Source: Massalongia carnosa (taxonomy: Eukaryota). Taken from it: a stretch of 64,000 nucleotides of DNA. Below the pieces are notes generated by a model that worked only from the letters and a program-made list of their open reading frames with translations, did no database searches and had not been told where the DNA came from. Location of the stretch: the NCBI GenBank assembly GCA_965645245.1, contig OZ287078.1, forward strand, positions 1,984,001 through 2,048,000. Direction: 5' to 3'. Below, piece after piece: positions 5,463-63,100 of the stretch. Numbering within the stretch: position 1 is the first letter of the stretch; each line of letters begins with the position of its first letter. A program made the position numbers and the translations under genes.

Positions 5463-6022
5463 AGAGCAATGTTTTGATATGCTGCTCGAGTCCTCTGGAA
5501 GATTTTGTCCTTTTGCCGCAATAGCCGCAATCTCGATCCATATTGAAAGCTTGAGGAGTTTTCACTTTCCGCGACCCGTCAGAAATCAGATAAACGTAAA
5601 CAGATCCCCTGCATTAGCAAAACATGCTTGCTAACTGAATCACGTTAAATCCCGTTAAACTGTTAGCTACTCTGCAAGCCACCTTCGAAACCTTAAATAA
5701 TCAACTATCTGGGGTCGGTTACTCTGTAGTTAGCTTAACTGTAAGAATGCGGCTCTGTGATAACTCTGGTCGGCTCTGCGATATATTAAATGGTAGTTAA
5801 CGAAGAGTAATAATCTGTGAAATTGCCAGAAGAATATGTTCAGGAGCTAGTATAGGAATTTAATAATCTCAAACCAATAATCACTGCTGTAAAGTGATAA
5901 TTCTATCAATATTGCCCTTCCAATCTCTTAAGCTTAGGGTTATTTTAAAGAATATACATGTTTTTGTAAGAACAAGCAATAAAATACGATCTAACAATTT
6001 GTGAACTGCTAACAGAAACTAC

Positions 6023-7800: not shown

Positions 7801-7882
7801 TTATCGTTTGAGACTTTTGAGGTTTGACATACTGAACCTTTTACAGAGATGATCTACGGTAAGCTAACACTAACTAATCCTA

Positions 7883-7956
7883 ATCTAACAGCTAACAGGA
7901 TTTTCCTGATCTAACAGGGTTTTCATGATCTAACAGGGGCTGTTTTAATCTAACAG
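7883..7956 (-). repeat. Array of ATCTAACAG motifs (reverse complement of the 2174-2365 motif)
   Basis: ATCTAACAG at 7883, 7909, 7928 and 7948 (last three 19-20 bp apart). Confidence 0.7.
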
Positions 7957-8447
7957 GAACCGTTAGCATATCATAACAAAGTCAACGATCCTAACACGCT
8001 AGATTTGATTGCAATGGCAAACTTGTTCCTTTTACTTTTCGCGTCGATCTCTTCTACTTTGCTCGTTTCCCAAACCCACAGGTATTGCATATTCCTTGTT
8101 GCTTCTTTTTTTTCACTATGTCAACATCAAAGGCAACCACTACTAACAACCCACAAAGAATCACAATGGTACGAACCTCCCCAGGATGTATAGAAACCAA
8201 CGCGTATCGGCTGACTTTGCTTTTCCTTCGAGAACTCTCAGGATTTTGATGATTCGCCTTCCGAGGAAGACTTGCCTACCATTGGCACAACTAAAACCCT
8301 CTCGTGCACAATTTGATGGAAATAATACTTACGGAGACAACAAACGCTCACATCGCCTGCCTTGTGTGGACGAGTTGGCTGAATCTAGTACTGGCAACGA
8401 CTCAAGCGATGCGAGTTTCCAGCCGAGTGTGAATAGTACAGTCATGA

Positions 8448-8933
8448 ATGCATGTATCGGGTTCTGACTTAGAACAGAAAACGCCGATAACTAAGTATGT
8501 GGCGAGGACATTACGGGCCGGTGCAGGCCGCGGTATTCAATACGGCCGCGGTATTCAATACAGCTCAAGTTCTCCATCTCGAAGGAGCTCCTTACGAAGG
8601 GAAACGTTCCCCTCGTCTCCACCGAGAAACCCTTCCCGCGCGCTGGATAATATCTTGTCACCTTCACAAATACGCACTCGTCGGGGTTTGCCTGCAACAC
8701 TCTCCTCGCAAACTCTCGAGATCTCAAAGGTCCTCCCGATCAAGTTTACTTCCGGCACAAGGGCTGGCATAACGGAGGACGAGACAGTCTCCGAAATCAA
8801 AAAAATAGATGCTTATCGTTTACTCTGGGGTGACATATCAAGGCGAACCAAATTCAACTCTAGCCCTGCTCATCAACCAATACTACGTGCCATGATTCCT
8901 TTTTTCAACGCTCTGATAACATCCGGACACTAA
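8448..8933 (+). CDS. Hypothetical S/R/P-rich ORF, possibly an exon of a transposon-borne gene
   Basis: 161-codon ORF with an internal 18-bp duplication (GGCCGCGGTATTCAATAC x2); no recognised domain. Confidence 0.25.
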   Translation: MHVSGSDLEQKTPITKYVARTLRAGAGRGIQYGRGIQYSSSSPSRRSSLRRETFPSSPPRNPSRALDNILSPSQIRTRRGLPATLSSQTLEISKVLPIKFTSGTRAGITEDETVSEIKKIDAYRLLWGDISRRTKFNSSPAHQPILRAMIPFFNALITSGH

Positions 8934-9003
8934 GCATGTGATTTGGGTAACCTAATGAAAATCTAACCCGAACCTAACCCAACCCATCCCATTCCGCGGC
9001 GTA

Positions 9004-10241
9004 CTCCACATACTACCCATATGTTGCAACCTCTGGACGTGAGTGTTTTTGGGCCCTTATCACGGGAGTACAAAAAACAATTGGAGGTCGTCACCCGATT
9101 CAACGTCTGTTCAGTGGACAAGGTGGATTTTCTGAAGATCATTCAAAAAGCAAGAAAAGAAGCAATCAACACAAAAATCGTGCTGACTGAATGGAGAGCA
9201 ACCGGACTAGTACCATACAATCCGTCATCAGTTCTTCAAAAAGTCACTAATAAACAATCGGTGTTGCGAAAGACTGATAGCATCATCATCACCACTACCA
9301 CCACCACCACCACCACCAACACTACTACTATCACCACCACGAATATCACCTCCTCTCATCCTAACACTCCGAAAACCCTTCAAAACTCTCACGAAATTGA
9401 AAAGACACCTGCAAATATCGATCAAATAAATCAACTGATTCGTCGAATTCGAAATGATAAAGAATCAGACTCGACTCCCGTTTGAGCGCTAAATAAATTG
9501 ATAAAAGGCGCTAAATATGCCTTCGCAGACTCTACCTTGCTACGTATCACCAACAACGAGCTTCTTCAGGCCAATGTACGGCGCCATCATCGAGCCAATC
9601 GTAGCGGGGCTCACTATGGAGGAAAGGCTCGAGTTCTAAGCCTTGAAGACGTTCAACAAAGACAGCAATGGGCCAAAGATAAACAAAAGGTGAAAGACGA
9701 AAAAAAGAAGGCCGCTCAGCTAAAACGAGCTGAGCAGGACCTTATCAAAACTTTCAGGGAAATGTGTCGATTTGGACCTGATTTACTAGGACAAACGTCT
9801 ACTGCATCTTCGACGAAAAGTCCTCAGAAAAGTCCTCAGAAAGCACCTGATAGTTCACAAAGTAAGCCTATTTGTTCTTTTCAAAGACGATTACTACCTC
9901 CTCCCGTGCTTCAACCAATGACAGAAGAGGTAGAGGGGGTGGAGGAGGTGAAGGTGAGTGGGGGGGTAGAGGTAGAGGTGGAGGTGGTGGAGGAGGTGAA
10001 GAAGGTTCAAACTACCAGACGGGGTCGTATTGTACGTCAACCACGTAAAATGTGATTAAGTTACATTCAGACAAAATATCAATTTCACGTCTAATAGACA
10101 TTGAAGCCGAATTTGTATGTAAAACGGGTGAGAGGGAGGCTGTAGAAATTAAGCGAAATTTAGTTAGTCCCGTTGCCCAGTTTGTCCCGTTGCCCAGTTT
10201 GTCCCGTTGCCCAGTTTGTCCCGTTGCCCAGTGAGTTACGT
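9004..10241 (+). mobile_element. 5'-truncated Fot1/pogo-like DNA transposon (3' half plus TIR)
   Basis: LQPLDVSVFGPL DDE C-terminal part; near-identical to the element at 40672-43050; ends ...CAGTGAGTTACGT|TA with four 17-bp CCCGTTGCCCAGTTTGT repeats; stop at 9483-85. Confidence 0.9.
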
Positions 10242-40445: not shown

Positions 40446-43083
40446 TGTTACGGTCTACCTAGAGGCTAGTCATAGGGACGCCATGAACGAAAAAAATAAA
40501 GATAAAGAGGAAAGAAAGACTCGAAAAGTCGGACTCGTTCCCTATAAAGCAACGCGCTCTCTAGTCCCCATTCAGTGAGTTCGCGAAAGAGTTTTCCGCG
40601 CTATCTCGTGACTCCTGCCGGCCGGCCGACAAGGTCCGTCTACGGTTTCCGTAGGTGCTCGATTAGGCTTAACGTAACTCACTGGGCAACGGGACAAACT
40701 GGGCAACGGGACTAACTAAATTTCGCTTAATTTCTACAGCCTCCCTCTTACCCGTTTTACATACAAATTCGGCTTCAATGTCTATTAGACGTGAAATTGA
40801 TATTTTGTCTGCATGCAACTTAATCACATTTTACGTGGTTGACGTACAATACGACCCCGTCTGGTAGTTTGAACCTTCTTCACCTCCTCCACCACCTCCA
40901 CCTCCACCTCTACCCCCCCACTCACCTTCACCTCCTCCACCCCCTCTACCTCTTCTGTCATTGGTCGAAGCACGGGAGGAGGTAGCAATCGTCTTTGAAA
41001 AGAACAAATAGGCTTACTTTGTGAACTATCAGGTGCTTTCTGAGGACTTTTCTGAGGACTTTTCGTCGAAGATGCAGTAGACGTTTGTCCTACTAAATCA
41101 GGTCCAAATCGACACATTTCCCTAAAAGTTTTGATAAGGTCCTGCTCAGCTCGTTTTAGCTGAGCGGCCTTCTTTTTTTCGTCTTTCACCTTTTGTTTAT
41201 CTTTGGCCCATTGCTGTCTTTGTTGAGTGTCTTCAAGGCTTAGAACTCGAGCCTTTCCTCCATAGTGAGCCCCGCTACGATTGGCTCGATGATGGCGCCG
41301 TACATTGGCCTGAAGAAGCTCGTTGTTGGTGATACGTAGCAAGGTAGAGTCTGCGAAGGCATATTTAGCGCCTTTTATCAATTTATTTAGCGCTCGAACG
41401 GGAGTCGAGTCTGATTCTTCATCATTTCGAATTCGACGAATCAGTTGATTTATTTGATCGATATTTGCAAGTGTCTTTTCAATTTCGTGAGAGTTTTGAA
41501 GGGTTGTCGGAGTGTTAGGATGAGAGGAGGTGATATTCGTGGTGTTGGTGGTGGTGGTGGTAGTGGTAGTGATGATGCTATCAGTCTTTCGCAACACCAA
41601 TTGTTTATTAGTGAGTTTTTGAAGAACTGATGACGGATTGTATGGTACTAATCCGGTTGCTCTCCATGCAGTCAGCACGTTTTTTGTGTTGATTGCTTCT
41701 TTTCATGCTTTTTGAATGATCTTCAGAAAATCCATCTTGTCCACTGAACAGACGTTGAATCGGATGACGACCTCCAATTGTTTTTTGTACTCCCGTGATA
41801 AGGGCCCAAAAACACTCACGTCCAGAGGTTGCAATATATGGGTAGTATGTGGAGGTAGACACAAAAGAATGATTTTCTTTTCGTTGCAAAACTTGATGAA
41901 TTCGGTAGAAATATGGGAAGCATGACCATCTACTATAAGAAGTCGATATTCACCGTGTAGATATTTTGCAGTAGCAGGTTCAAAACACTTTTTCAACCAA
42001 TCAAGACCTAGTTCATTGTCTGTCCATCCGTTTTCGCTGGTAGCTATTTCAGTGTCAATGTCCTCCAGTGCATCGTACCAGGCCTTTTGCTTGTTGACTC
42101 CTTTGAAGATGACGAAAAGAGGTAAACTTCGACCGGTAGTACAAATGGACTCGATCAATGACACCCATTCTCGATTACCTGACTGTGCTGAAAAGGCTTG
42201 CTTTTAGTGCTTAGAAATTACTACTTTAGCACTAGCAGCTACCCCCATCATGAATCCCTTTTCGTCCATGTTGTAGATGTCTTCATCAAGAATTCCGTGC
42301 TTTTCTTTCATGGAGAGGAAAAGGTCAAACCAGTGCTGAAATATCTCTTCATTCTCAGCGAATAATCGTTCTTGATCTAGTGTGCGACTGTATTTAGCCT
42401 GCAGATCGGGATGACGATGTAAAAAATACTGTTGCCAATTGACTCCTAGCACAGTATGATTCTCCCTTGCTCGTAGTAATTCTATGGCTATCTGACGTAG
42501 CTGAGCTATTTTAGCAGGCCAGCCCCAGGCGTACAGTTGTAAAACCCAGTTCTTCAAAGCGTCTTCCTCCTCGGGGGTCAGCAGAAGTTTAGTTTGATCA
42601 GACGTAAATCGTGATTGACGACCCTGATTGCGGGCATGAAGGGTAGACTTTAAAACATCATATAGAAAAGCTGCCTTCGTAATGGAAAGAGCTCCATCGG
42701 CCTGTTTCCAGGCCAAAAAGGCTGACTGTAATCGTTGTTGATAGGTAGAGGTGGGGTGAAAACATGAAGGAATGGAGGTCTTGTGGGAGGTGGTTTTTTT
42801 ACCTACACCCATGATTATAAAGTTTCAAAATGATGAATATAATCTACTGTGATGTCTGAAGCTGAATTTGTATGTAAAATGTATGTAATGAAGGCTTCAT
42901 CATCTAGAGTGGTCAAAAAGTGATGATTTCGGAATTACTTAGTCCCGTTGCCCAGTTTGTCCTGTTGCCCAGTTTGTCCCGTTGCCCAGTTTGTCCCGTT
43001 GCCCAGTTTGTCCCGTTGCCCAGTTTGTCCCGTTGCCCAGTGAGTTACGTTAGTTCCTAAAGGCAAAAGGTAGAATCATGACA
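40446..43083. mobile_element. Solo LTR (~257 bp) split by a Fot1-like element
   Basis: TGTTAC...ATGACA termini with TSD GTACC (40441-45, 43084-88). Confidence 0.75.
40672..43050 (-). mobile_element. Full-length Fot1/pogo-like DNA transposon; transposase (42812-40824) has two in-frame stops
   Basis: TA|ACGTAACTCACTGGGCAACGGG TIRs at both ends; 17-bp internal repeats; IYNMDEKGF, LLIVDGHASH and LQPLDV motifs. Confidence 0.95.
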
Positions 43084-46474: not shown

Positions 46475-47731
46475 TCATCTGCCAATATCATTGAGAACTA
46501 GATCTTTTACCTGTTCCCTTTTCAAAATGCCCTCCATCATTTGCCTTGTAGCCAAATGTTTTAATTCTTCATCATGAGCCTCCTCTTCTGATGTCCACAA
46601 TCCTTCTTCTTCTTCCCATTCATCATGCATGTCCAACAAAACGTTATGCAGTACTACACATGCAGTAATCCAACGAATGGCGTAGATGTAACCTTTTTTG
46701 TTTCTAATTCGAAGTCTCAGCCCGGTTAAACTTTTCCATCTTCCTTTCAAAATTCCAAAGGTGTGCTCGATGTCAATACGAATTCGAGATAGTCTTCTAT
46801 TGAACTTTCGAACATTCGCGTCTCTGGTATTAGGGGCCTTGTATGGAGTCACCAAATAGCGAGAATTGGTGTAGGCACTGTCGCCGAGAAGATACTGCCC
46901 TTCCGAGAAGTAAAGATGAGGATTTCTATTCAAATCTCCCGCCGCGAAGATTCTCTGATCGTGCTGAGAGTTTGGCCAACCACTGAGGAAGTAAATGAAT
47001 CTTTTGTCGGAATCGCATACGGCACATAAATCCAGGGCGTATCTTTTCTTTCGATTAAAGAATAATTCGCCGTCATAAAGACCTCCAGGTTTGGTACTGA
47101 GCACTATATCCGTCCCATCCACCTTTCCTACTACTCCGATAAATCCTGATTCTCGAGTATCATTGGCTAAGCTTTCTCTTGTCCTAGCTCTTGCAGTTGG
47201 CCATTTGATGAAGCTATTCCTCAACCGACATAAGGCCTCCACCACTCGCTTGGTACAATCGAAAACGTGTCTCTCGGATACTCCCCAAAAGGTGGCAGTT
47301 GAAAGAAACCCGCTTCCGCTACCATCATGATCAAGCTTGTATAAGGCACATTGAAGTTGACTTTCGACCGGTGCCTGTTGAATATTGGAATTGTTTTGGA
47401 AAACCGAATCGGATCGAATTAAATCAACTATTCGTTGAACGGAGATACGACTCATTCGTAAATAGCCTCGATATCGATCATCTGAAAGAGTGGGAAGGAC
47501 TCGAACGGCCCAATTGGACTTGAGAATGGAAGATCTGGAAAAAAGATATCTCTGATCCTTTAATCCTTCAGAAAGAATGAGGTATTCCAAAGCGTCATCG
47601 GCCTCATTGGAAGAGGTGGCAAGAGTACTACTGGCTAAGAAAAGGTGGTACATATCTCTTTGTAAAAGAAGCTTGTTGCTGTATCGAGGCATTTCAGAAG
47701 CTTGATAAGATGATGCTTTAGAGAATTTCAT
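46475..47731 (-). CDS. PIF/Harbinger DDE transposase (DDE_Tnp_4/HARBI1-like)
   Basis: YLRMSR, VGKVDGTDI, GWPNSQHD, YLLGDSAY, RIDIEHTFGILKGRW, ACVVLHN. Confidence 0.93.
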   Translation of the reverse strand: MKFSKASSYQASEMPRYSNKLLLQRDMYHLFLASSTLATSSNEADDALEYLILSEGLKDQRYLFSRSSILKSNWAVRVLPTLSDDRYRGYLRMSRISVQRIVDLIRSDSVFQNNSNIQQAPVESQLQCALYKLDHDGSGSGFLSTATFWGVSERHVFDCTKRVVEALCRLRNSFIKWPTARARTRESLANDTRESGFIGVVGKVDGTDIVLSTKPGGLYDGELFFNRKKRYALDLCAVCDSDKRFIYFLSGWPNSQHDQRIFAAGDLNRNPHLYFSEGQYLLGDSAYTNSRYLVTPYKAPNTRDANVRKFNRRLSRIRIDIEHTFGILKGRWKSLTGLRLRIRNKKGYIYAIRWITACVVLHNVLLDMHDEWEEEEGLWTSEEEAHDEELKHLATRQMMEGILKREQVKDLVLNDIGR

Positions 47732-48659
47732 GATGATTGATTTTTGATGATGATCAGATAAGGCGATAAGCAGTTTATTAATCTTTTTGAAATTTAAGGT
47801 GATACGGGGACTCAGAGCAAAATGGCAAATACGGGAATAATGGTTTATAGAATAAGAAATAATGCTTTATTTATAAAAGTCGAAATTCTACTCTGAAAAC
47901 CCCTAATAAGACAAGCAGCAGGAATTCAGTTTAATAAGCTCTTGCTTCGAAACTGATCGAGTCAGAAAAGGCGTAATGCTTACGGTGGAACTGGCGTAAT
48001 TTCCTCTCTCCGAAACTTGTTCATCCAATTTCCACGACCTTCTTCTAGCCTCTTATTTTATTCAAAATGCGGCTCTCTTATAAAAGAGTATGTCATCATC
48101 CGGCTCCAATCAGATATTAATTAGCTAGACATAAACTGCATACCAGCTTTACATTCAGTCTAGTTTAGATTAAGTTCTCAACACATCTATACGTTTTCAG
48201 CGCCCTTTATCCTCGCCCGGTTGAGCCTTAGTCGAAGCAGCATCAGTCAGGCTAGCATCGATCGGAACGGCACTGCTAGTAGGCCATTCAGTTTTGGGAT
48301 TTGGGAGTTTCTCTGTCACTCGCACTAGGGGCTAGCATTTCAGCGAGCAAGCTGGGGCCCTCTGAGCCGAGCGTTCCTGATCCCCTAGGGCGCCAGCGTG
48401 GTGCAAATAGGAGGGAGCAGCCAAACTCTAGATAGACAAGAAATCGAGGGTTTTAACGGGTTAGACGATAATTATCAAATTTGAATCTTTCGTTTATCAG
48501 CGGGTGTGTGGATTTTTTTGTTCACCGCGTATCACTATATCACTAGATCTGTAGTTAGCTCGTCACATCGGTGCTATGTTTCTACCCTATTGCACAAGCG
48601 GCAAGTAACATTTGCATCTCTTTATCATGACCTTTCGCTGATGCCGTCTACAATGTATA

Positions 48660-48840: not shown

Positions 48841-49551
48841 TGTCGCTCGCACTTCATCTCTGTGAATCGCAAGTCAATTATCACTTAGATCAGTGAAGGT
48901 TTTTCTGTCAACCTCAGTCCTTGCTTAAAGGCTTTGAAATGTCGAAACAAAATCTCAATAATGTCAACGTACTGACCTGACATAATGAAAATGATAGGAA
49001 TAGATGTCAGGACTTGATGTATTGTAATTGCTCGTCTCATCTTCAGCTATGTCATTGCTCAATCGCTTTACGATTTTAGCGTACTTTATCAAAGGCTTGA
49101 CAGGCGTAAGCACTGATTGTACGTCTTTGAAAATCTCCATCATTGCATCTACGTAGCTCAATGAAGTAAGATGCTTATTCATTCAATAATGATTTAAGAT
49201 CTTGTCAGACTTTTGTTCTGAAGTGCTTACGGAAGCAAGGGCAGGATTCAGAGATCGGACATAAGTTGGATAAGCATTCTCTGCTAAGAGGCCCCCTCTA
49301 GCTGCGGCATGTTTGAAGCCTGGAACTCTTGTCATGCGAGCTCTTCACGTCTCACAAGGAGTCAACTTTCACCCGAAGCTGATGACTGCGCAAAAAAACA
49401 TTGTTTTGAAAGACGTCAAAAAGCCAACTGCTTATTTCATGTCGCTTAATAATTTCCTAGAATGACTCCGCAATGTTGACTAGTAGTTCCATCATTGCCT
49501 ATCCCTCGGTCTACACAGAGTCTTTTGGGTTAATGCCATGATAAGTATTCT

Positions 49552-50773
49552 TTATGTTCTGTCAGCTTGTACATCGCTATCGAAAGGATAGGTGATCCTT
49601 ATAGTGACACTGCTCCCAGTTATCTTAACCCCTTCTGTGGCCGTACTATTTGCATGACCCATAATCACACCTCGATTGTTATCGATTTTGTCCCTAAAGT
49701 TAACATCGCCCATACGAACCGAATGTTTCTGTTGATTTTCAGCTAACTTCAAGCGCGCGAAAGAGATGTCAGACCTGGCGATCCTCTCCAGACCCCTTGG
49801 ATCGACTATCAAGATCCGATATCCATTGAACCAACTTTTGTGAAATTCTCTTGTATCCCTCTCGGTCTTCATCCTCAAACTTGCACATATCAACATGATT
49901 CGCCTGGATCGACTGTGGATCGATACCAGGCAGGCAAGCCGATTCCTTGGCCACGATAAATCCCATCTTCGTCCCTCCCTTATACATAGCATACTGTTCA
50001 AAGAAACAAGCTACTTCCACAAACTTTCTTGATTCTAAACGATCCCGTGCTTTCAGGAATTTCTGAAAGGCCTCGTTAACGCTGATAAGCTTTGCCGAAC
50101 GCTCTTCAAGATCCTTTATATCCTGCTTATGCGTGGTGCTTATCCAGCCCAATATCTGTAGAGCTCTGCTTCCCCATTTTGCTTTTGACGATCCTTCAAA
50201 GGGCGTTCCAAGGAAGACGACTCCAATCGTTCTCTCCACGAGGTTAGTGCTAGCAATGTCGGTACCATTGTGCCTTGACAACGCATTGGCGCAAACGAGA
50301 CCCCCTAGACTGTGCGAGACGAAAATAATCGGACGTTCAGCCTGGACATAGGCATCCTATTAGCGTATTTCCGGTGGAAAGACAAAGGGGTGCGCCAGTT
50401 CCTACAGTTTTCGTTTTCTCGCGAAGACCGATTAGGCTCTGGAACATTGCAGTTGCGTGATCATCAATAGCTAAATGCTCCGGGATGGATTTCGGCCCAA
50501 CAAACGGATAGAAGTGAGCAAAGTCCGCGTTGTACCCAAAAGAAAGGATGCGAGTTGTTGGGCAGGCTTGAGGTAAGAGATCTTGCGGCCATAACAGCGA
50601 TCTATCGCGTCCCTCCCATGTCCAGGTTTTCACTCTGTTACCGCCGAGCCCGTGGACGAAGACAATGCTGTATGGTCAGTACCAAGCAACCCGGACGAGA
50701 CATCTGGTGCGTACTCTATATTCGCGTCTGGAGAATCAAAGAGGGGGTCGCCTAATCCGTACGGTTCGGCCAT
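49552..50773 (-). CDS. SesB-like alpha/beta-hydrolase with C-terminal N/G-rich candidate amyloid motif (4 exons, ~354 aa)
   Basis: Exons 50773-50715, 50667-50406, 50341-49775 and 49728-49552 splice in frame; DIVFVHGLGG, LWPQDLLP, RILSFGYNA, RPIIFVSHSLGG, VVFLGTPFEGS, ANHVDMCKF. Confidence 0.87.
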
Positions 50774-51618
50774 GCTGGCGTTGTCATCGCAACAAGGAGG
50801 AGTCGTGTACTCCGCAGTAATCGTTGGCTAGTCTCTCGCTTACCTCGGCCGACTCGAGGCGTTCGCCTCTAGTCGGGGAAAGCAAAGTTCGTCTTTTCAA
50901 CTTTTACACGCAAAAAATCAATCAAATAACGATGGGAATTTTTTTCTACAAAGATCAAGCATGAAAAATGTTATAATAATAGTTATACTAATAATAACCC
51001 AACTGCTCCTGAATATCATCCTCGTCGCTGTCGTCGACATCGTCGCCTACTTCCTCTTCTATTTCAAAGGCAACGAAGTCTTTTTGTAGACGAATAGAAT
51101 CACCTTCACCTATAAATCGTAGATTTTGATCACCTACAGTATCCATGATAAAGACTGTCTCTGTCTTTTCCTCTTCATCATGAATATATGAGTATCTTTT
51201 ACTCCTTTCTTCGTCTTTTTTTTGGTCTCTTCCGTCTGCCAAGTAATATCGCTGGCCTTCCAAATGGCCTCAGGATCATCAATGGGATTCAACATTTCAT
51301 CGGATATGCTAACTCCCTGTTTTGCGAGGTCTTTAACATGTTTTATTCTGATCTTTTCATTCTTTCGAGCGATAACACCTTCCGCGTGTACACTATCTCT
51401 TTTTATTCGCCATATTCTCATGAAGTTGTTGTGTTCTCGTTTCTTTTCTATCTGCTCATCTTTTTGCTGTCTTTCAGCAATTGCTCGTTGCGCATCCTCC
51501 TTCGTGAGTCCTAATCCTCCGTCTGTCGAGTAATTAGGTCTTAATCGCTTGCGAGAAGTTGCTCTTTGTAGTAATTCATTGCTTCTTCGCTCATGATGAA
51601 GTGATAATTCGAAGTTCG

Positions 51619-52041
51619 TGTCAGGGGAGGGCTAGAGAGATACAAGACTCTATCTTGCAGAACGGATATCTAGATATGCTAAAACTAGAAGTTGAGAATA
51701 ATACACAAGACGTCCGATGAAGAGCTCTAAACACCTGGGAAACCACATAGACTTTATAGCCATAGCTTTCAACTCTCCTATTCTCGACTTGCCCGTCTCT
51801 GTTCCTGTACTAATTTCCTTAACATGATTGCTTTGACCTATCCCGCCTTTATCTGTGCTGAAGCACTCTCAGTCATAAGCCTGGATAGTGGAGACGTTGA
51901 GATTGGATGCGGATTGTAGGAGATTGATAGTGCGCTGAGGGCGGCAGAAGAACGCCTGAGCACGATGGATGACAGCAATGGGCCCTGTTAAATACTAACC
52001 CGATCAGGACAAGCGGGAGGGTGCGAAGCGATTCCGTGACA
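51619..52041 (-). mobile_element. Solo LTR (423 bp)
   Basis: TGTCA...TGACA; TSD GTTCG; related to and inverted relative to 52978-53467. Confidence 0.9.
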
Positions 52042-52977
52042 GTTCGTAAGTGTCGATTTGGCAACAACTTCCTTCATATTACTCACGAATTTCTCTAACT
52101 CATGTTCCCGGACTGGATCACTCCATTGTGTATTATCGCGAATTTTGGGTAGCAATTCAAGTAATCCTCTTTCAACATCATCAAACTTTTTAGGTTGAAT
52201 TCGTGGCAATGTTGGGAGAGATAATGTTGAAAAAGAAGAAGAATTATTCTCACTTTGCGAAGGTACAAACCTCTTTAGCTGTTCAGTACATTTCTTCTCA
52301 TTAATAGGCCATATTCCAGATTTTTCAAAGGCAGATTCAATAGTGGATTTCTTGAATGTGTTATCTCGTATTTTGGTGAGATCTTGACAAAATCGAGTTA
52401 TTGTATACTCTACATTGAACTCAGCAATCGCATCTTGAATTGCCACATCATGCCAATATTTATAAAGTTGAAACACTCCTACATCAAGCGGTTGCATACA
52501 ATGCGTCAAGTGTGATATTAAAGGATAAGAATGTATCCAGTTTTCATTGGCAAGCTTGATGAATTCAGGAGTAACATGACTACCGTGATTATCCATGAGC
52601 ATCAACCTCTAATCACTCTCAGATCCTGCATCAGACTTTTCAATGTAATGTTGCAGATATGCAATCGCTATTTTATCCGATGTGAATCTATTTTCTGACG
52701 AAACAATTCGAGTCTCTTTAGGCAGTTCGTCTGCAAACCAATTGCTCATCATATCATGACCTTGTATGACAAGTAAAGGAGGTGGCGGATAATCACCGGC
52801 GGCGTTTATATTCTCGAAATGGTGATAGATTTTCTATTCTCAGGACTAATAGAATAATACTCCTTTACGTCTGTTGGAACCAAAATTTCATGTCCCTTCA
52901 TGCAGCCAACTCGAAAACCAGCCTTATCAAAATTGATGATATTTCGTTTATTCTTGAAATTCAGCTCTCGAAGAACC

Positions 52978-53467
52978 TGTCATGGAATTACCTCGCACCC
53001 TCCCACGTTTCCTGATCGGGTTAGTATTTAACAGGCTCTCTTGCCGTGAAACCTGCCCTGCATGTTGAATAGAACCGTGGCCCGTTATTCCGAACTATCC
53101 TGAAACCTCGCCCCATGTGTTCAGACGTTCTTCCGCTGCCTTCAGTGCACTCCCAAACTCTTATATCCCGAATCCAATCTCAACGTCTCCACTATCCAAG
53201 CCTACGACTGGGATTGCCCAGCAGAGAGAGATTGCTTCGGCATGGAGAAAGGCGGAACAGGTCAAAGCGATCATGGTTAGGAAATTAGAACAGGAACAGA
53301 GATGAGGGCAAGTCAATAATAGGGGAGTTGGAAGCCATGGCTATAAAACCTATGTGGTTTCTCAGGTGTTTGGAGCTCTTCGTCGGACGTCTTGTATACT
53401 ATCCCTAGACCTAGCTTTCTAAATAGTAACTCTTGTATATCTCCCTATCTGGACCTTGTCCGTGACA
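52978..53467 (+). mobile_element. Solo LTR (490 bp)
   Basis: TGTCA...TGACA; TSD GAACC. Confidence 0.9.
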
Positions 53468-54336
53468 GAACCACCCGATAATCAGCGAACCATGCTTCAA
53501 CGTCCTTCACTTCTCCCGCCGTATAGCGAACGACTGCTAACTAGCGGTTTAGTCTTAATCTTATGTAAATTGTTGGATTTCTACCATGTTCTAAACCATC
53601 GCTTAGTAGGACCTTTATAATCAGCATTCTAACTTCGCTTGAGACTCTTCATCGCGTTGAATATCAGTTCATGCGTCGGTTGAACACCATATGTAAGTAA
53701 CGAGCGAATGAACTCATGTATTGCTTTGATCTGATGCTTCTCCAATATCTTATTATGTCCTCCTCTTTTCTCGACTTCATTCGACGCGCTGTTTTGAGCA
53801 AGTGAACTTTGTAAAGTGGTACGAGGAGTGTCAGATATGCGAGCAGCGCATATCTTGCTTTCAAGTGGATTTTCTATTAGAAACTGCTTAGCATCATTCA
53901 GACGCGTGACAGTATCATTAAAATTCATGATTATGATGATGATCAATAATGAAATAGTTGATGTAGTCAAATGCGTCGTGTTGGTGGAATGGAAATAAAA
54001 TTGCGAAAAGACGAACTTTGCTTTCCCCGACTAGAGGCGAACGCCACGAGTCGACCGAGGTAAGCTAGAGACTAGCCGACGATTACCGCCTGCATGGAGA
54101 GACCAGGCGCTTGAGCACGTGCATAGCCTTGGCTCTATCAGCCAGTCATCTATCCCGTGCCCGCATAATGGCGGGGGCCTTCCATCGGCGAGTCCGTGCC
54201 TATATTTATAGGAAAGTCTTGGGCGTCGAGTTTCTGACCGAGCCTAGGTGCGGTCCTGAGGACGGTAAAGATAGGGGGTTTCAGTCTTATTCAATACAGC
54301 CCTGAGCTCTAATGTCTACAATCTTCCGACGCAGCA

Positions 54337-57300
54337 ATGCCCGGTAACACGCTAGCAGTCTCTACAGGCGCGAAGGATTTTGGCACGATTTCTGGCAACC
54401 AAGGCGCTGTGATCGGTGACGTCTCAGGCTATGCGAAAGTGATTGGTTTGCGTCCTGTTCACATCGATATTGATCTTATGCTAAATCCTGATTAGGCTCT
54501 CAGACAAACAATATTGTTCAATATCCAGGCAAGTCGCCATTCGCAATGATATAGCGCCCTGTGAGCCAAGGCTGATAGCATTCTGCGTTTGTAGAAAGAC
54601 CCGATACCCCACCAAGCCCATCATCTGCTGTTCCTTTCCGCCGCGACCCTGATTTCGTCGATCGTGGAACGCTACTTGATCAGATCCACGAAAAGTGCTC
54701 CGCGCCAGCGTCAAGGGTAGCGCTTGTCGGCCTAGGCGGCGTTGGGTAAGCCAAAGGGCCTCAGGCTAGTTCTAATAGCTTACTTTCGCAAAGAAAGTCG
54801 CAGCTTGCCATCGAGTACTGCTATCGAATCAGAGAGCAGTTGCCGACGACGTGGGTGTTCTGGATACACGCTAGTAATGCAGCCCGTATCGAGCAAGGTT
54901 ATCGGGATGTTGCAGAGCAAGTCAAGATTCCTGGCAGGGAGGACCCAAAGGCGGACATATTCCGGCTAGTTGACAAGTGGTTACGCGACGAGAAGAACGG
55001 AAAGTGGGCTCTGGTCCTCGACAATGCCGACGAAGCTACTGTGCTTTTCGAAACTCATGCTACAGGCCAGAAGGCGCAGGATGGCGGCATTAGAAGCGGG
55101 CTCACGCAATCACTGTTAGCATATCTACCTCAGAGTCGAAACGGCTCGATTCTCATCACCTCCCGGACTAAAAGCGTGGCATTGCGGCTAGCAGAAGAAA
55201 GCGACATAATACCGGTTGAGCCGATGGACGATACACATGCGCTAGCGCTCCTTGAAAAGAAGCTGGGAGAACAGATGGACAGAGATGATACTGCTGAGCT
55301 AGCAGCAGCACTCGAATTCATGCCGCTTGCCATCGTTCAAGCGGCCGCATACATTCGACAAAGAGTACCAAGATATTCTGTGCGACAGTACATAAAAGAG
55401 TTCTATAAAAATGATAAAAGAAAGACCAGTCTGTTGAATCACGAAGCGGGACATCTTCGCAGGGACCTGGAGGCTAAAAATTCAATCATTATAACCTGGC
55501 AAATATCGTTTGATCATATTCATCAGATTAAGCCTTCGGCAGCTAATCTGCTGTCGCTTATGAGCTTTTTCGATCGACAGGGAATTCCTGAGGCTTTACT
55601 CAAGACACAAAACGAGGCAGGAAATGAAAATACGGGAGAAAATGCTGGAAATGACGAAGATGATGACCACGAAGACGATAGCGATAAGAATACCGTATCC
55701 GACTCCAACGTCGACGAGTTTGAAGCCGACATACTTGTCTTGAGAAACTTCTCGTTCATCACCATCAGCATGAATGAAGCCACCTTTGAGATGCACGGGC
55801 TAGTGCAGCTAGCGATCAGAAAGTGGCTAGAAGCATCCAATCAGCTCGAAAGATGGAAGCAGCAATACATCAAGAATCTCTGTACAGTATTTCCGACGGG
55901 AAATTACGAGAATTGGACAAAGTGTCAAGCGCTTTTTCCTCACGCAAAGTCGGCAGAAGCGCAGGAGCCAGCTGTCGAAAGCTCATTACAAGATTGGGCC
56001 TTGATACTATATCACGCTGCATGGTATGCGTGGGCGAAAGGGAGTTACGCTGAAGCAGCGACAATGGCCCTAAAAGCAACAAGAACCAGGCAAAAAGTGC
56101 TTGGTCCAGAAGATGAAGAGACATTGAATAGTATGACTATGCTAGCCTTGGCATACAAGGGACAAGGACGACGGACGAAGGCCGAAGAGCTGGAGGTGCA
56201 AGTGATGACGACGAGAAAGAGGGTGCTAGGGGCGGAGCATCCTTCCACGCTGACTATCATGGCCAATCTTGCGTCGACGTACAGGAATGAAGGACGATGG
56301 ACGGAGGCCGAAGAGCTGGAGGTGGAAGTGATGGAGACGAGAAAGAGGGTGCTAGGGGCGGAGCATCCTTCCACGCTGACTAGCATGGCCAATCTTGCGT
56401 CGACGTACAGGAATCAAGGACGATGGACGGAGGCCAAAGAGCTGCAGGTGCAAGTGATGGAGACGAGAAAGAGGGTGCCAGGGGCGGAGCATCCTTCCAC
56501 GCTGACTAGCATGGCCAATCTTGCGTCGACGTATTGGAATCAAGGACGATGGACGGAGGCCAAAGAGCTGCAGGTGCAAGTGATGGAGACGAGTGCGAGG
56601 GTGCTAGGGGCGGAGCATCCTTCCACGCTGACTATCATGGCCAATCTTGCGTCGACGTATTGGAATCAAGGACGATGGACGGAGGCCGAAGAGCTGCAGG
56701 TGCAAGTGATGGAGACGAGAAAGAGGGTGCTAGGGGCGGAGCATCCTTCCACGCTGACTAGCATGGCCAATCTTGCGTCGACGTATTGGAATCAAGGACG
56801 ATGGACGGAGGCCGAAGAGCTGCAGGTGCAAGTGATGGAGACGAGTGCGAGGGTGCTAGGGGCGGAGCATCCAGACACGCTGACTAGCATGGCCAATCTT
56901 GCATCGACGTACAGGAATCAAGGACGATGGACGGAGGCCGAAGAGCTGGAGGTGCAAGTGATGGAGACGAGTGCGAGGGTGCTAGGGGCGGAGCATCCTT
57001 CCACGCTGACTATCATGGCCAATCTTGCGTCGACGTATAGGAATCAAGGACGATGGACGGAGGCCGAAGAGCTGCAGGTGCAAGTGATGGAGACGAGTGC
57101 GAGGGTGCTAGGGGCGGAGCATCCTTCCACGCTGACTATCATGGCCAATCTTGCGTCGACGTATTGGAATCAAGGACGATGGACTGAGGCCGAAGAGCTG
57201 GAGGTGCAAGTGATGGAGACGAGAAAGAGGGTGCTAGGGGCGGAGCATCCTTCCACGCTGACTATCATGGCCAATCTTGCGTCGACGTACAGGAATCAAG

Positions 57301-57569
57301 GACGATGGACGGAGGCCGAAGAGCTGGAGGTGCAAGTGATGGAGACGAGTGTGAGGGTGCTAGGGGCGGAGCATCCAGACACGCTGACTAGCATGAATAA
57401 CCTTGCACTCACGTGGAAGTCTCAAGGCCGCAATGATGAGGCTCACTCACTGCTAAAGGAATGTTGTCAGCTACGAAAACACAAGCTGGGTCCTCAACAT
57501 CCTCATACGAAGTCTTCGCTTAAGTATCTCAATGAGTGGCAGATGGAGAGTTTATCATTGAAGTCTTAA
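54337..57569 (+). CDS. Fungal NLR: short N-terminal candidate amyloid motif, NB-ARC, TPR (4 exons, ~1022 aa)
   Basis: Exons 54337-54445, 54496-54528, 54595-54745 and 54794-57569 in frame (intron 2 GC-AG); VPFRRDPDFVDR, P-loop GLGGVGKS, WALVLDNAD, ILITSR, MPLAIVQAAAYI, MHGLVQ; ~10 TPR units. Confidence 0.92.
56163..57422 (+). repeat. Ten near-identical 126-bp TPR-coding repeats
   Basis: QGRWTEAEELxVQVMETxxRVLGAEHPxTLTxMANLASTYxN, 42-aa period. Confidence 0.95.
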
Positions 57570-58367: not shown

Positions 58368-59744
58368 CCAGCATCGCCGCACTGTCCAATGATCATCACC
58401 AGGTCAGAAGTGTCGAAGGCCCTGCATCGGCTCAAGCCCGATAAAGCACCGGGTCCTGACGGCATATCTAATAGAGTATTCAAGGCATGCGCGGAAAAAC
58501 TTGTTGAACTATTAACACCTCTGTTTCAGGCGTGCGTTACACTTTCGTACCATCCCCGAGCCTTCAAAATGGCAAACACAATAGCATTAAGAAAAAATAG
58601 ACAAAGGGAATTACACCGCCCCAAAGGCTTACCGACCAATTGCATTACTCAACACGCTCAGCAAAGTAATGGAATCTATCATAGGATCAAAAATATCCTA
58701 TTTAGCGGAAACACATCGGCTCCTACCCGACACACAGATGGGAGCGAGAAAGGGTAGATCTATAGAATCAGCTCTGGAGTTGTTAACGAACAGGTTCACA
58801 CGATTTGGGGACAAGGAAAAGATAAAGTAGCCACACTTTTAAGCATGGACGACGCCGGCGCGTTTGATATAGTTTCACATCAAAGACTAACGCACAATCT
58901 ATGTCAGATGGTAGGGGCTACCATCATGGGCATTCATCTAGTGCTTATCTTCGGCGACTCTACCACGGGGACCGAGATGACCTCCGGGGACCGAGATTCA
59001 GTGGACCGGCTGACTCCTTATGAAAAGGGTCGCCGAAAGGTCTCCAATGTGACTGCTATATAATGAAGTAGATAGCTCACATATAATCCATACCTTCAAT
59101 GACAATCATGCTATTATACCTACGCGTGAATTTTACTATTCATCAATCTACGTAAAAGAAAAATCCCGAAATGGATTACTGGTTGGTTAAACAGCCTTTT
59201 AAATGATTGTAGCACAACTCTAGCTATAAATCGAAAAGCGACCGGACGATTCGCGGTGAGAACCGGCATACCACAGGGCTCCCCTCTCTCATCCATCCTT
59301 TATCTATTCTATAATGCAGACCTATTGGAAATATGTGAGCGACCAGGCACAAACACAAGTGCCATAGGATTTGTAGACGATGCCAACATTTTGGCATACG
59401 GAAAAAGCACCGAAGAGAAATGCAGGACTCTGGAGTCAATAAACAGACAATGCGAAAAGTGGGCTTCCCGACACGGATCTCTATTCGCTCCGACGAAGTA
59501 CAAACTCAGTCACTTGTCTAGAAATCCCAAAAGATTCAATATGGCTGCATCTATCAACATTGCAAGCACCGAAATTGAACCAAAAACGGACATTAGAGTC
59601 TTAGGCTTGCAAATTGACACCAAATTAAAATGGGGACCGCACGTTCGCAAAACGCAAAAGAAAATGGTTAAAAAATCCATGGCATTGACAAAAATCTCCA
59701 CATCGACTTGGGGTGTCACCTTCACCAAAGCAAGGCAAGTTTAC
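58368..59744 (+). mobile_element. Tad1-like LINE RT fragment
   Basis: KAPGPDGI, YHPRAFK, TGIPQGSPLSSILYLFYNADL, GFVDD, LGLQIDTKLKW; frameshifted. Confidence 0.88.
58902..59145 (+). mobile_element. Solo LTR (244 bp) inside the LINE fragment
   Basis: TG...CA; TSD ATCTA; LINE frame LTHNL|RKRKIP rejoins; shares TGTGACTGCTATA..GTAGATAGC core with 30912-31318. Confidence 0.88.
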
Positions 59745-60005
59745 TGTTGAGTTAAATAGGTAGGTAATAGTATGTGTGGGAAGGATTGATTATTCTATCT
59801 AGGTGGCTATCTACTATGTTTATATAGCTAGATAGATGAGAGATGAATAAGATAGAGAGCAGGCACAGCGGCAGGGCAGGTTTGCCTTGAATCTCCCTGC
59901 CCTACCACCTCATTACCTAGCCGTGTGCGGATCACTTGAGACGTTATTCCCAAGCCGTTATGTTGCCGTCTGGCACGGTACATAGGATGGCTGTCTCATC
60001 TAACA
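59745..60005 (-). mobile_element. Probable solo LTR
   Basis: TGTTGA...CTAACA; reverse strand carries GCTATATAAAC..GTAGATAGCC core; flanks TTTAC/TATAT do not form a clean TSD. Confidence 0.5.
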
Positions 60006-60104
60006 TATATACTTTCGCCAGTTCGTGGAAACTACATAGAGATATCCTGGGACTCCCTAACGTGATATTCGAATTGTTTCGAAAAAAAGAAAAAAACTAT
60101 AAAA

Positions 60105-63100
60105 GTAATTCGGCTCGGGCGAAAGGTAATGCCGGGACCGAGTGGAGGCAGGCCGCGGATAGCCGACGAAGGCCGAAGGTTGGATGTTGGACGGGAAGGG
60201 GAGAAAAAAGCATAAATAGGTGGCCTTTTGGCACTCTTCTCCTCATCATTACCATTGATTCGGAGTTCAGCACCAAAAGGTCTTTTGAAAGCCTTTCCCG
60301 AATTAAAAACATCTATCAATTACTCACCCCCAATCGCATCATTCCAAATCACCTTCACCTCTCATTCTATATTACCCTCCACACTGAGCCCATCATGCCT
60401 TTCCATCGCCCTCAAAGAACCATCAAGCCCTTCATCCACTTCGAAAACACCTCCAGGCCCGGTCAACGTTTCACTCGTTCCACCCGATCCCCTAGAAGAG
60501 GGGTCATAGTTTCAGAAACACAGCCTCCTTCGAACACTCAAGGTTCGGAGGGAACACTTCGGGACGATGTGGTAGACGTTCATCGAACATCGGAATCAAT
60601 CCCGGATCTGCTGTTGGATCTCCGGGCTCAGCAGGAGGCCACGGCGACAGTCCTCAGGCAGGAGGAGACCCGTCACCTTCAAAAAACAAATTGCCGACAA
60701 CTTGGCAGCCATTCAGCGCATAAGGGAGGGAAACACAGTCCCCGACGGAGACATCAAGGGACTACCCCACCTGATTCGCTGCCTCGGGGTGTATTGGCAG
60801 GTCTTGCTTCATTTGGCATCATCCGGAATAAAAGACAGTCTTTGTAGGGCCGTTCAAATCTATCAGGACCGCTTGTTGTTACATTACACCACCTACACCT
60901 GAGAGTCAGTAGGAATGTTTCATATAATCTTTCCACAGGGGTCGAGTGTACCAGGGAGTGAACGATCCGGCCGGATGGAGGAGAATCGACACCATCATCG
61001 AAAACATGTATCTTACTCGACGGACACCTAACCTGTTCATGACGGGAGGTATCACCAAACAGCGTCCGGATCACTCCCGGTAGGCGGCTCCACTGAATCA
61101 AAGCCCATGTCCTGCAATAGATACAACGCAGGGCGGGAATACAAGGACTGCAGGTATCCTCACGTCTGCAATCTCTGTTTCGGCCATCACACGAAAAACA
61201 ACTTCCTCAAGGCACATATTAGCAACCCAAATTTCATGTCAACGGGTAGACGAGATTGACTAGCCGGCACATTTTATCATGTCGCCGAAGGGTTCCCCTA
61301 TCCGCTGATAGATAAATCAGCAATCGTACTTTCAGGGCCTCTAAGAAAAGAAGGCTGGGAACTTCACCTCATGGGTCATCCGAAAAAAAAAATTACAAAC
61401 AGACCATTTACGATATAATCATGTACGGGGCCAAAATTGATTACACCGGCCCAGATCAGTTCATTCTAAGCAACAACCTGGCCTCGGCCAACGCGGCCCC
61501 AGAAATGCTGACCATGGACGTAGAGGACCAGAGGGCCAGGAACCGATTGATCGAGGTACCCACCCTACCAGCCAGATATATATGCTCCCCCTTATGCCTG
61601 ATCCTCAAAGTACACGGAGGATGGCGCCGTATTCATCACCTCTCCCATCCCGAGGGTAATTCGGTGAACGACTTCATTCCCGAAGAATGGGGCGCTCTGG
61701 AATATTTTCTTTCGACGAAGCCCTCGCCGGCGTCAGAAGAATGGGCAAGGACTGCCTACTGATCAAACGAGATCCAGCCGATGCCTTTCGCCACGTTCCA
61801 GTGGCGCAAAGCGATTGGTGGTTGCTGAGTTTTTGTTGAAACGGGGTTTACTGGATGGAACGCTTTCTTCCATTCGGCCTCAGGAGGTCTCCCTTCTTGT
61901 TTGACATATTCGCGAAAGGCCTGAACTGGATGATGATTAATTGTTCAGACCTCGGCCTAAAATCAACGATAAGAAAAATAAACAAGGCACGGTAGTCGAA
62001 TTCCTGGGCATCGAGCTGGATACACACCTCATGCAGGCACGACTACCGGCCGAAAAGCTTCAGAAAGCTAAGGATCTTGTCCAAACAACATTGAATAAAT
62101 CCACGATAACCAGAAACAAGCTAGACACTCTTGCTGGGATTTGTGGGCTTTGCAGCCAAAATGGTGGTGCCGGAAATAACTTTTCTCCGACGCCTTTTCA
62201 ACTGCAAAATCGGGCCCGCGCGCCCATTAATGAGTAACAATTCTCACATAAAAGCTGATCTTTTATGGTGGCATCATTTCCTTCCATTATGGAACGGCAT
62301 ACACATTATTAGCCCTTCGAGACCCCTGCTCCGTCTCTGGACGGATGCCAGTGGGGACTTCGTGATCGGGGCATAAATATTTCAAGGTGGTCAGACCACA
62401 CACATTGCCCGCTGAGCAAGTGGTTTCTGAACGTTATACCACCCCTTTGCAGCCAAAGTAGTGGTGCCCGAGAGAACCTTTCTTCGGCGCCTTTTCAACT
62501 GCAAAATCGGGCCCGCGCGCCCATTTATTCATGTCGATTCCCACATAAAAGCTGATCTTTTATGGTGGCATCACTTCCTTCCATTATGGAACGGCATACG
62601 CATCATCAGCCCTTCGAGGCCCCTGCTCCGTCTCTGGACGGATGCCAGCGGGGACTTCGGAATCAGGGCATACATACTCTTAGGTGGTCAGACCACACAC
62701 ACACTGCCCGCTGAGCAAGTAATATCTGAACGATACACGACTAGGCTCAGAGCCAAACATATCAATGAGAAGGAGATGACAGCGATCCTGCACGCCATAC
62801 GGCGGTGGCTCCCCCTGTGCAAGAGAGCCCATCTTCTTCTCTATTGCGACAGCTTCGCTGTAATGTCCGGGGTCAAAAAGACCTCCATGCGAGGAGGGGC
62901 CATGCACCCTCTTCGGAATATCGCCATGATGGCGGCTGTAAATGACATTGAAATCGAGCCACACTGGCTGTCGACCAAAGAAAACTTCTTAGCAGATTGG
63001 TTGTCCCCAGTATTATTTGGGAAAATCGCTGACAATTACCCCAAACTGCAGGGCATTTCATCAGACAAATAACGGCGACACACGCCCGCGACCCTCCAGA

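Follow-up and report, generated by a model that had tools for sequence, protein, structure and literature searches.

The window analyzed here is a stretch of 64,000 nucleotides from the genome of Massalongia carnosa (GenBank assembly GCA_965645245.1, contig OZ287078.1, positions 1,984,001 to 2,048,000 of the forward strand), and all coordinates given below refer to positions within it. Two divergently oriented genes are located in this window. One encodes a SesB-like alpha/beta hydrolase (49511..50773, minus strand), the other a NOD-like receptor (NLR) with an NB-ARC domain and TPR repeats (54337..57569, plus strand). A related motif of about 40 residues is present at the C-terminus of the hydrolase and at the N-terminus of the NLR. 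It resembles the fungal pseudo-palindrome (PP) amyloid motif, lacks its central glutamine, and is called the Q-less motif in the following. Together the two genes probably constitute a fungal NLR/effector module of the amyloid-signalling type, with a PP/RHIM-related motif, which is disturbed in the window genome. An earlier note, made from the sequence alone, had described such a pair; both genes and both terminal motifs were found at the positions that it had given, and corrections were necessary for the spacing of the motif, for a shared ending 'YP' and for the spacer between the genes.

The hydrolase gene was delimited using the sequence, gene models and the splice joins of orthologues. Translation starts at 50773, and exons 1 to 4 (50773-50715, 50667-50406, 50341-49775 and 49728-49603) are separated by GT-AG introns of 47, 64 and 46 nt. 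The 64-nt second intron and the join ahead of exon 4 are backed by the annotated orthologues P0003, P0004, P0005 and P0126 (labels with P denote database proteins); the splicing predicted for both genes of the window is based on homologue annotations and DNA alignment. Pfam matches to exon 3 were weak (Hydrolase_4 19 bits, DUF676 16.6 bits, Abhydrolase_6 15.9 bits); the orthologue P0142 matched Abhydrolase_6 (PF12697) with 28 bits, above the cut-off of 26.3. The nucleophile elbow S-H-S-L-G-G is retained in the window protein. In an AF2 model of the orthologue P0005 (mean pLDDT 64.1, pTM 0.69) the alpha/beta-hydrolase core was folded, and the best Foldseek matches of this model were carboxylesterases and lipases (prob 1.0). 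In addition, the N-terminal hydrolase domain of the NLR P0039 matched the window hydrolase with 33% identity over 279 residues (E 1.9e-45). In the NLR literature, SesB-like effectors are annotated with PF05057, PF07819 or PF12697, and fusions to NLRs also occur. The fold, the elbow, the PF12697 match of P0142 and the homology to P0039 identify the gene product as a SesB-like alpha/beta hydrolase, with putative catalytic activity.

Exon 4 (49603..49728, minus strand) is the motif exon of the effector side. It encodes 42 residues, with the core N-x-G-V-I-M-G followed by a second segment that ends with I-T-G-S-S. The motif has an exon of its own, as the earlier note had claimed, and the orthologue joins of P0003 to P0005 agree. 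Against a profile built from the C-terminal motifs of other loci, with the window left out, this exon scored 81.5 bits. In the model of P0005 every residue from 289 to 354, i.e., the linker and the motif, had a pLDDT below 50, and the motif-bearing tail is predicted to be disordered.

The hydrolase terminus itself had to be revised. Relatives splice one further intron after the second motif segment, with the donor GTATGA in L001 and GTAAG in L002, two metagenome loci that are described below. The fifth and last exon of the relatives is still present in the window (49549-49511, minus strand), as revealed by DNA alignment with L001 and L002. The first base of the last-intron donor, at position 49602, is an A on the minus strand of the window (ATAAGG) and a G in the relatives. 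On the plus strand, the T of the window is replaced by a C in four of four public runs (depth 23412/23412 in X1, 13446/13446 in X2, 3637/3807 in X3 and 107/107 in X4), which restores GTAAGG, and the mutation was thus seen in the window allele only. Because of this mutated donor, the hydrolase tail after ...GSSVT is intron read-through; it continues to a stop at 49554-49552. Only the final ~12 residues are altered, downstream of both conserved segments. The ending 'YP', which had been regarded as a common feature of both proteins, is therefore an allele-specific accident and not a feature of the family, since relatives splice out the intron from which it is translated on the hydrolase side. A second difference between the samples was seen in exon 2: at position 50543 the contigs of X2, X3 and X4 are short by one base in a T-run, and X1 is identical to the window. 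If real, this difference would shift the hydrolase frame in the X2, X3 and X4 samples.

The NLR gene comprises four exons (54337-54445, 54496-54528, 54595-54745 and 54794-57569). The receptor-side motif (54358..54528, plus strand) covers residues ~8-47 and extends across exon 1 and the 33-nt exon 2, with the intron 54446-54495 inside. In the protein, the motif-bearing stretch of ~47 residues is followed by a Pro-rich linker, NB-ARC, DUF7779 and 12 TPR_10 units. The P-loop GLGGVGKS is divided by the third intron and rejoined by splicing. The Pfam matches were TPR_10 with 532.8 bits over 12 stretches and DUF7779 with 32.2 bits; NB-ARC reached 18.2 bits, under the cut-off of 23.5, scored on an exon that does not include the P-loop, and relatives do carry PF00931. 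A P-loop NTPase of the NB-ARC type is combined with TPR repeats, as in the NB-ARC/TPR class of fungal NLRs. A folded effector domain was not present at the N-terminus, which consists of the ~47-residue motif stretch, as the earlier note had claimed; the exon structure is backed by the joins of the annotated relative P0011 and by the alignment with L001. P0011 has the same N-terminal splice joins as the window NLR, and the identity of the two proteins is 73% in the searched region and 79% in the columns used for a tree. With the window left out, a profile of the remaining N-side instances gave exon 1 a score of 73.1 bits. The second intron of the gene is a GC-AG intron with the donor GCAAGT at 54529; at the corresponding position L001 reads GTAAGT. 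Working GC-AG donors usually read GCAAGT.

The TPR array (56163..57395, plus strand) is built of 9.8 near-identical units of 126 bp, i.e., 42 residues, with 94% matches and no indels. The close relatives P0006, P0007 and P0008 have lengths of 820, 778 and 736 residues, exact steps of 42, which suggests a repeat-number polymorphism of the sensor domain. The near-identical units, the 42-residue length steps and the transposon-rich surroundings fit a recognition receptor under diversifying repeat turnover, as described for fungal NLRs. Most ENA/JGI gene calls of close NLR relatives begin past the P-loop, typically with a start of the VFW[IV]HAS type, and the motif-bearing N-terminal micro-exons are systematically absent from these collections. 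Motifs of this kind are overlooked because tiny 5' or 3' exons are dropped by gene callers.

If the shared motif links the two genes, the pair should recur in other genomes, as the earlier note had also proposed. Metagenome contigs were scanned with five hydrolase orthologues; 164 stretches matched, and 11 loci were confirmed. The hydrolase of L001 shares 80% identity with that of the window, and NLR exon 1 with the motif lies upstream on the opposite strand, 283 bp from the hydrolase start codon. The alignment score of the hydrolase and NLR motifs was 59, which was reached by none of 5000 shuffles. The L005 hydrolase is 58% identical, and its divergent partner open reading frame (ORF) begins with M and then the motif. 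This partner motif is nearly identical to the tail of the adjoining hydrolase, the strongest within-locus match found (score 86, again 0/5000 shuffles). The partner ORF of L005 (745-888, minus strand) has a Pro-rich leader of 15 residues before the motif. In both loci the pair within the locus was the best score of its row, a pattern of co-evolution; this was not the case in the window. In L007 the hydrolase is 42% identical, and a matching N-terminal motif was detected 4 kb away (15.8 bits, E 0.0019 in 152,047 six-frame residues). The contigs of L002 and L003 have the tail motif on the hydrolase and are too short to reach a partner gene. Clustered genes were thus found not only in the window but again in L001 and L005 and, at a distance of 4 kb, in L007, and the earlier claim of a two-gene NLR/effector module with a shared motif is supported by these loci and by the 49 database representatives described next.

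For the database search a family profile was used (alignment A5, nine contiguous translations of the window and the loci), and the target consisted of 1,835,955,588 representative proteins, i.e., clusters at 50% identity. The search yielded 49 representatives at E <= 0.001, six of these at E <= 1e-10. With the aid of a 4-residue insertion that is typical of the effector side and absent from the NLR side, 32 were assigned to the C-terminal and 15 to the N-terminal type; two were truncated. The carriers included the full-length hydrolases P0140, P0142 and P0165. They also included P0174, a NACHT-type/ankyrin NLR (NPHP3_N 54.9 bits, Ank_2) in which the motif occupies residues 8-40, and P0167, a motif-bearing PNP_UDP C-terminus whose identity to the PF01048 region of P0070 is 64% over 64 residues (E 1e-20). 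In a search with a 52-residue read-through NLR reference, only P0128 and P0011 matched among 17 candidates. Named hydrolase relatives came from Phaeosphaeriaceae sp. PMI808 and Lindgomyces ingoldianus, and named NLR relatives from a Lobaria immixta record, from Lindgomyces and, in a shorter form, from Patellaria atrata. Judged by their records, the named relatives point to Dothideomycetes in most cases, with one lichen-filed record.

Column counts over 65 distinct aligned instances revealed a position-specific conservation. An early V (43/50) is followed by a first G (59/61), an F or Y (62/65) and an N (57/65). The core G is invariant (65/65), and V, A or I follows. The central position is occupied by V in 42 instances, I in 16, M, F and Q in two each and L in one; the next position is M, A, I or V, and the closing G of the core is found in 63/65. 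After the core, H, N or D is found, and then the second segment [IVL]-[IT]-G-[ST], with its G in 57/58. The motif of ~40 residues can be summarized as the core N-x-G-V-[VI]-[MAIV]-G, followed by a conserved second segment [IV]-[IT]-G-[ST]. The pattern drawn up in the earlier note aligns in this way as well; its F..I spacing was off by one on the hydrolase side, where a gap is needed. On the grounds of these sequence data, the Q-less motif is a real conserved motif family.

Several points weigh against the interpretation of the window genes as a functional module with a shared motif. First, the similarity of the two termini within the window is modest when considered alone. The first 47 residues of the NLR and the last 58 residues of the hydrolase had a Smith-Waterman score of 42 (shuffle mean 22.7, sd 4.5), which was reached by 11 of 5000 shuffles, and with an orthologue-type hydrolase C-terminus the score was 38, reached by 58 of 5000. 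Second, the window NLR scored 54 against the hydrolase of L002 and 38 against its own, so that its own pair was not the best of the row. Third, profiles that had been built without the window were applied to the 94,273 six-frame residues of the window. The NLR exon received 7.4 bits from the C-side profile (E 0.42, still the best non-self match), and the hydrolase ORF received 10.2 bits from the N-side profile (E 0.073); a probably spurious ORF at 49529-49449 outscored it with 11.6 bits. Fourth, the contig of L005 ends ahead of any NTPase domain, and the partner is thus a putative NLR. Fifth, the partner in L007 was checked for a P-loop and for Pfam families, and neither was present. Sixth, the Lindgomyces NLR P0069 and hydrolase P0126 are located on different contigs (1,094,647 and 1,744,002 bases); therefore, adjacency is not universal. 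Seventh, the 49 representatives are for the most part ORF fragments of exon size, derived from automatic gene calls and without context. Last, the window copy itself may be impaired by a transposon and the donor mutation.

Two further comparisons of the termini were less informative. MAFFT alignment of whole NLRs together with whole hydrolases did not bring the N-terminal and C-terminal motifs into alignment. A complex prediction with two copies of each motif had a score of 0.01 and a mark of 0.34 and counts neither way.

The modest similarity within the window raises the question of whether the termini are alike by chance, as could occur with low-complexity sequence rich in G, N and V. For the window pair alone the shuffle p is about 0.002-0.012, and the PP-type N-terminus P0102 scored 49 against the window hydrolase tail, above the window's own NLR. 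By itself the window pair is therefore not convincing; it becomes so together with the family evidence. The pairs of L001 and L005 are far stronger, and the conservation in the 49 representatives is position-specific, so that chance similarity is extremely unlikely.

The shared motif might also have a role other than amyloid formation, e.g., as an interface for beta-addition, as a targeting signal or as a degron. The partner gene of L007 would be in accordance with such a role: at 5812-6003 (minus strand) and downstream to 2889, its motif heads a gene with a helical region of ~150 residues and an 836-residue Pro-rich frame, without NLR features, so that the partner may not be an NLR in this case. 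At 6821-9216 of the same locus a tandem paralogue is located that lacks the motif. However, in the window the same short motif is located at the N-terminus of an effector-less NLR and at the C-terminus of an effector, which matches the placement of the described amyloid signalling motifs. The composition fits as well, being G/N-rich with hydrophobic triplets flanked by G and with few charges on the N side. The disordered context also fits, and so do the SesB-like and PNP_UDP effector types (PMC9815663, PMC3321046, in the parts of these sources that were available). A non-amyloid role is thus regarded as quite improbable, and we infer that the Q-less motif has amyloid behaviour.

The relationship to the PP family was analyzed next, since the motif could simply be an ordinary member of this known, RHIM-like family, and nothing new. 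For the published families, here and below, the accessible parts of the cited sources were used. The defining feature of PP is G-phi-Q-phi-G around a conserved central Q, flanked by N and G (PMC7885112, PMC5485727), and the 2012 consensus of the motif is FxGx(x)NxGLQLxGxNxGxL (PMC3321046). The Pfam model of PP is PF17046, 'misnamed SesB' (PMC12261475). The PP modules PNT1/HELLP/SBP of Chaetomium globosum and Podospora anserina have much in common with the window genes. The NLR is of the same NB-ARC/TPR type with a short N-terminal motif and a Pro-rich linker. NLR N-termini that pair with the C-termini of effectors have been described, with SesB-like lipases among the partners (PMC3321046, PMC5485727), and PP itself is known on such a lipase, SBP (PMC5485727). 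The core spacing N-x-G-phi-x-phi-G with flanking N and G is identical. Relatives of the window NLR itself carry PP, and 40 of 71 rows in an NB-ARC tree of this group had the PP pattern. The only two instances with a central Q, P0171 and P0177 (G-V-Q-x-G), hint at a bridge to PP. When the two families were compared with hhalign, the cores were in register, with P 0.0039.

In contrast to these similarities, the models of the two families hardly recognize each other. PF17046 gave no match at E <= 10 on either motif exon, although the HMMER filters may hide very weak matches, and among precomputed domains it is missing from P0011 and P0069, yet present on several PP relatives. A local PP profile was built from 40 N-termini of related NLRs. 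It scored at most 8.0 bits on 19 Q-less instances (16 listed, E >= 0.13 at Z 1000), whereas its own members reached 34-62 bits. Conversely, a profile of the Q-less motif scored at most 7.4 bits on PP members, compared to 35-92 bits for its own. The hhalign probability was only 8.5%. The central Q of PP is missing in 63 of the 65 instances, and V or I takes its place in 58. PP is a pseudo-palindrome of 17-23 residues, whereas the Q-less motif is not palindromic, is about twice as long and has a second conserved segment. PP modules include a HeLo-like partner, and none was seen with the Q-less motif. Both motifs exist in one organism, Phaeosphaeriaceae sp. PMI808, in which the hydrolase P0004 has the Q-less motif and the NLR P0122 has PP. 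The Q-less motif is thus read as related to PP in its core spacing and distinct from it at the profile level, as judged with PF17046 and the local profiles, and it is unlikely to be an ordinary PP member. A two-segment variant of the PP/RHIM kind that lacks the Q is the description that fits it best. The suggestion of the earlier note that a PP/RHIM-like motif without the central Q might be a new or variant family agrees with these results.

P0039, an annotated protein of 828 residues from a Cenococcum geophilum record, bears on the same question, since NB-ARC and a PP motif (PF17046) are combined in it with a hydrolase domain homologous to the window hydrolase. Either this is a genuine single-chain form whose motif is internal, or two neighbouring genes were merged during annotation. 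As it joins PP to a homologue of the window hydrolase, it counts in favour of ordinary PP membership.

The distribution of the motif among the receptors was analyzed with the NB-ARC tree mentioned above, a quick, unfinished tree that was midpoint-rooted and gives no direction. The five rows with the Q-less motif were spread over three or more positions between PP carriers; 51 of 500 shuffles were equally clustered. The tree did not reveal a single origin of the motif and did not support simple descent from one PP-bearing NLR. The carriers are scattered, and therefore the N-terminal tag seems to be exchanged among NLRs and not inherited with the lineage.

The other known families were also compared. 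HRAM, exemplified by NWD2/HET-S, has the same pairing of NLR N-terminus and effector C-terminus. The hydrophobic-x-hydrophobic-G-[N/H/D] stretch of the Q-less motif resembles the end of an HRAM repeat, and its two segments could stack as two rungs. The rules for the 21-residue HRAM unit are G at position 19, hydrophobic residues at 5, 8, 10, 16 and 18, N/Q/H at 3 and R/K at 15 (PMC4518210). When they were mapped by hand onto the column counts, four of seven positions matched (19, 18, 16 and 10), while 3, 8 and 15 did not: an invariant G occupies position 3, a hydrophobic residue is lacking at position 8, and the R/K is one place off. Furthermore, an HRAM pair comprises a single repeat on the NLR and two repeats on the effector, whereas both segments of the Q-less motif are present on both sides, and HRAM effectors are HeLo proteins, whereas those of the Q-less motif are enzymes.

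The sigma motif (het-eN/SesA/SesB of Nectria haematococca) is also ~40 residues long and is found on SesB hydrolases and NLR N-termini. It consists of three repeats of GxGxQFN or GGTQNINT (PMC3321046). Inspection of the alignment showed that such repeats are absent from the Q-less motif, and no Pfam family at all matched the motif exons at E <= 10. PUASM shares the PNP_UDP carrier, and PUASM and the provisional GDQN motif were found by the same pairing logic. Their patterns, FxGxGxQxxGxGxF (PMC9815663) and NxxxGxQYxxxGxGDQNxVSxxxxQxN (PMC12261475), did not fit the alignments of the Q-less motif on inspection.

Previous descriptions of the motif were also sought in the available portion of the literature. 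The fungal amyloid signalling motif (ASM) families named in PMC9815663 and PMC12261475 are HRAM, sigma, PP, PUASM (1-2), a few unassigned ones and GDQN, and the only hydrolase-derived motif in the reverse search of PMC9815663 is a sigma one. In 4.0 of the 5.4 million characters of the S1 Table of PMC9815663, the accessions KAF2468400, KAF2838466 and KAF2679034 and the word Lindgomyces were absent. The strings FGTIS and GAVIG had no occurrence in nine of the eleven supplementary files of that paper. In the fungal ASM literature covered, no fitting description was found, and the published PP profiles (NLR07/NLR39) may already catch some instances. NLR34 (PMC9815663) was considered as the same motif and is an unlikely candidate: its 25 listed carriers belong to Fusarium, Tuber, Lomentospora and Pyrrhoderma, almost all are NACHT-type or unannotated, and no dothideomycete NB-ARC/TPR protein is among them.

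The head-to-head arrangement given in the earlier note is indeed present, with 3563 bases between the start codons, but most of this spacer is a single pogo/Fot1-like DNA transposon of 3264 bp (50820..54083, minus strand), and ~300 bp remain without it. The element has terminal inverted repeats of ~80 nt, TA flanks at 50818-50819 and 54084-54085, and a broken transposase frame with a DDE_1 match of 23.8 bits at 51991-52608. The element sits upstream of the hydrolase, 46 bp from the start codon, and interrupts the ~300 bp of promoter region that both genes share. Two nested insertions of ~430-500 bp are present in it in opposite orientation (about 51615-52042 and 52972-53466), and some contigs of the public runs skip them (51614>52043 and 52971>53467). 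The insertions form long internal inverted repeats. Their summed contig depth is several-fold higher in all four runs, and they are therefore part of a multi-copy short element. A contig joint 50806>54084, which skips 3277 bases, was found in X2 and X3, in one contig each; its side of 28 letters is below the 31 required for a bridging joint, and it is 11-13 bases off a TA-to-TA junction. This is a weak hint that a transposon-free allele exists.

Further transposon sequences surround the module, which is thus placed in a transposon-rich stretch. An open Harbinger-type transposase frame of 463 residues is located at 46475-47866 (minus strand, DDE_Tnp_4 100.4 bits), a Tc5/psq transposase piece at 42207-42824 (minus strand), and reverse-transcriptase and RNase H pieces at 59130-63072 (plus strand, RVT_1 at 59130).

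With the transposon close to the hydrolase start, the mutated last-intron donor, the GC donor of the NLR and these surroundings (DDE_Tnp_4, Tc5/psq, RVT_1), the motif family could be real and the window copy a decaying, non-functional locus. However, the coding exons of both genes are all open, and the 9.8 TPR units are in frame and 94% identical. The GC donor has the form of a working one, and the read-through leaves both conserved motif segments intact. The pogo-like element is old enough for nested insertions, yet the genes are intact. Such decay is therefore held to be rather improbable, and the module may be weakened in the window genome by the transposon near the hydrolase start and the lost splice donor.

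For a functional NLR/hydrolase module, the activation mechanism is likely to follow the paradigms of NWD2/HET-S and PNT1/HELLP/SBP. A ligand would bind to the TPR array, after which the NB-ARC NLR would oligomerize. The clustered N-terminal motifs would nucleate a cross-beta fold, which would template the same fold in the hydrolase tail, and the templated tail would activate or relocate the hydrolase.

Tentatively, the Q-less motif can also be proposed to be a distinct, as yet unnamed ASM family, a claim that we make with more reserve than that of the module itself. The family would be a two-segment, Q-less derivative of RHIM/PP with the hydrophobic centre G-V-[VI]-[MAIV]-G. Its receptors would be NB-ARC/TPR and NACHT/ankyrin NLRs and its effectors SesB-like and PNP_UDP proteins, and it would constitute a separate channel beside PP, without cross-seeding. 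In the reviews and surveys up to 2025, as far as they were accessible, four or five fungal ASM families are listed (HRAM, sigma, PP, PUASM and the provisional GDQN), and each new family is of interest as a signalling channel of its own. The Q-less family, with its 49 clusters at 50% identity, is abundant enough for study. It lies near PP in sequence space and lacks the hallmark glutamine, and thus it offers a natural test of seeding specificity and of the requirements of the RHIM-type fold. If the proposal is true, the conserved glutamine ladder of the RHIM type would be dispensable, and it could be replaced by a hydrophobic core to create signalling specificity.

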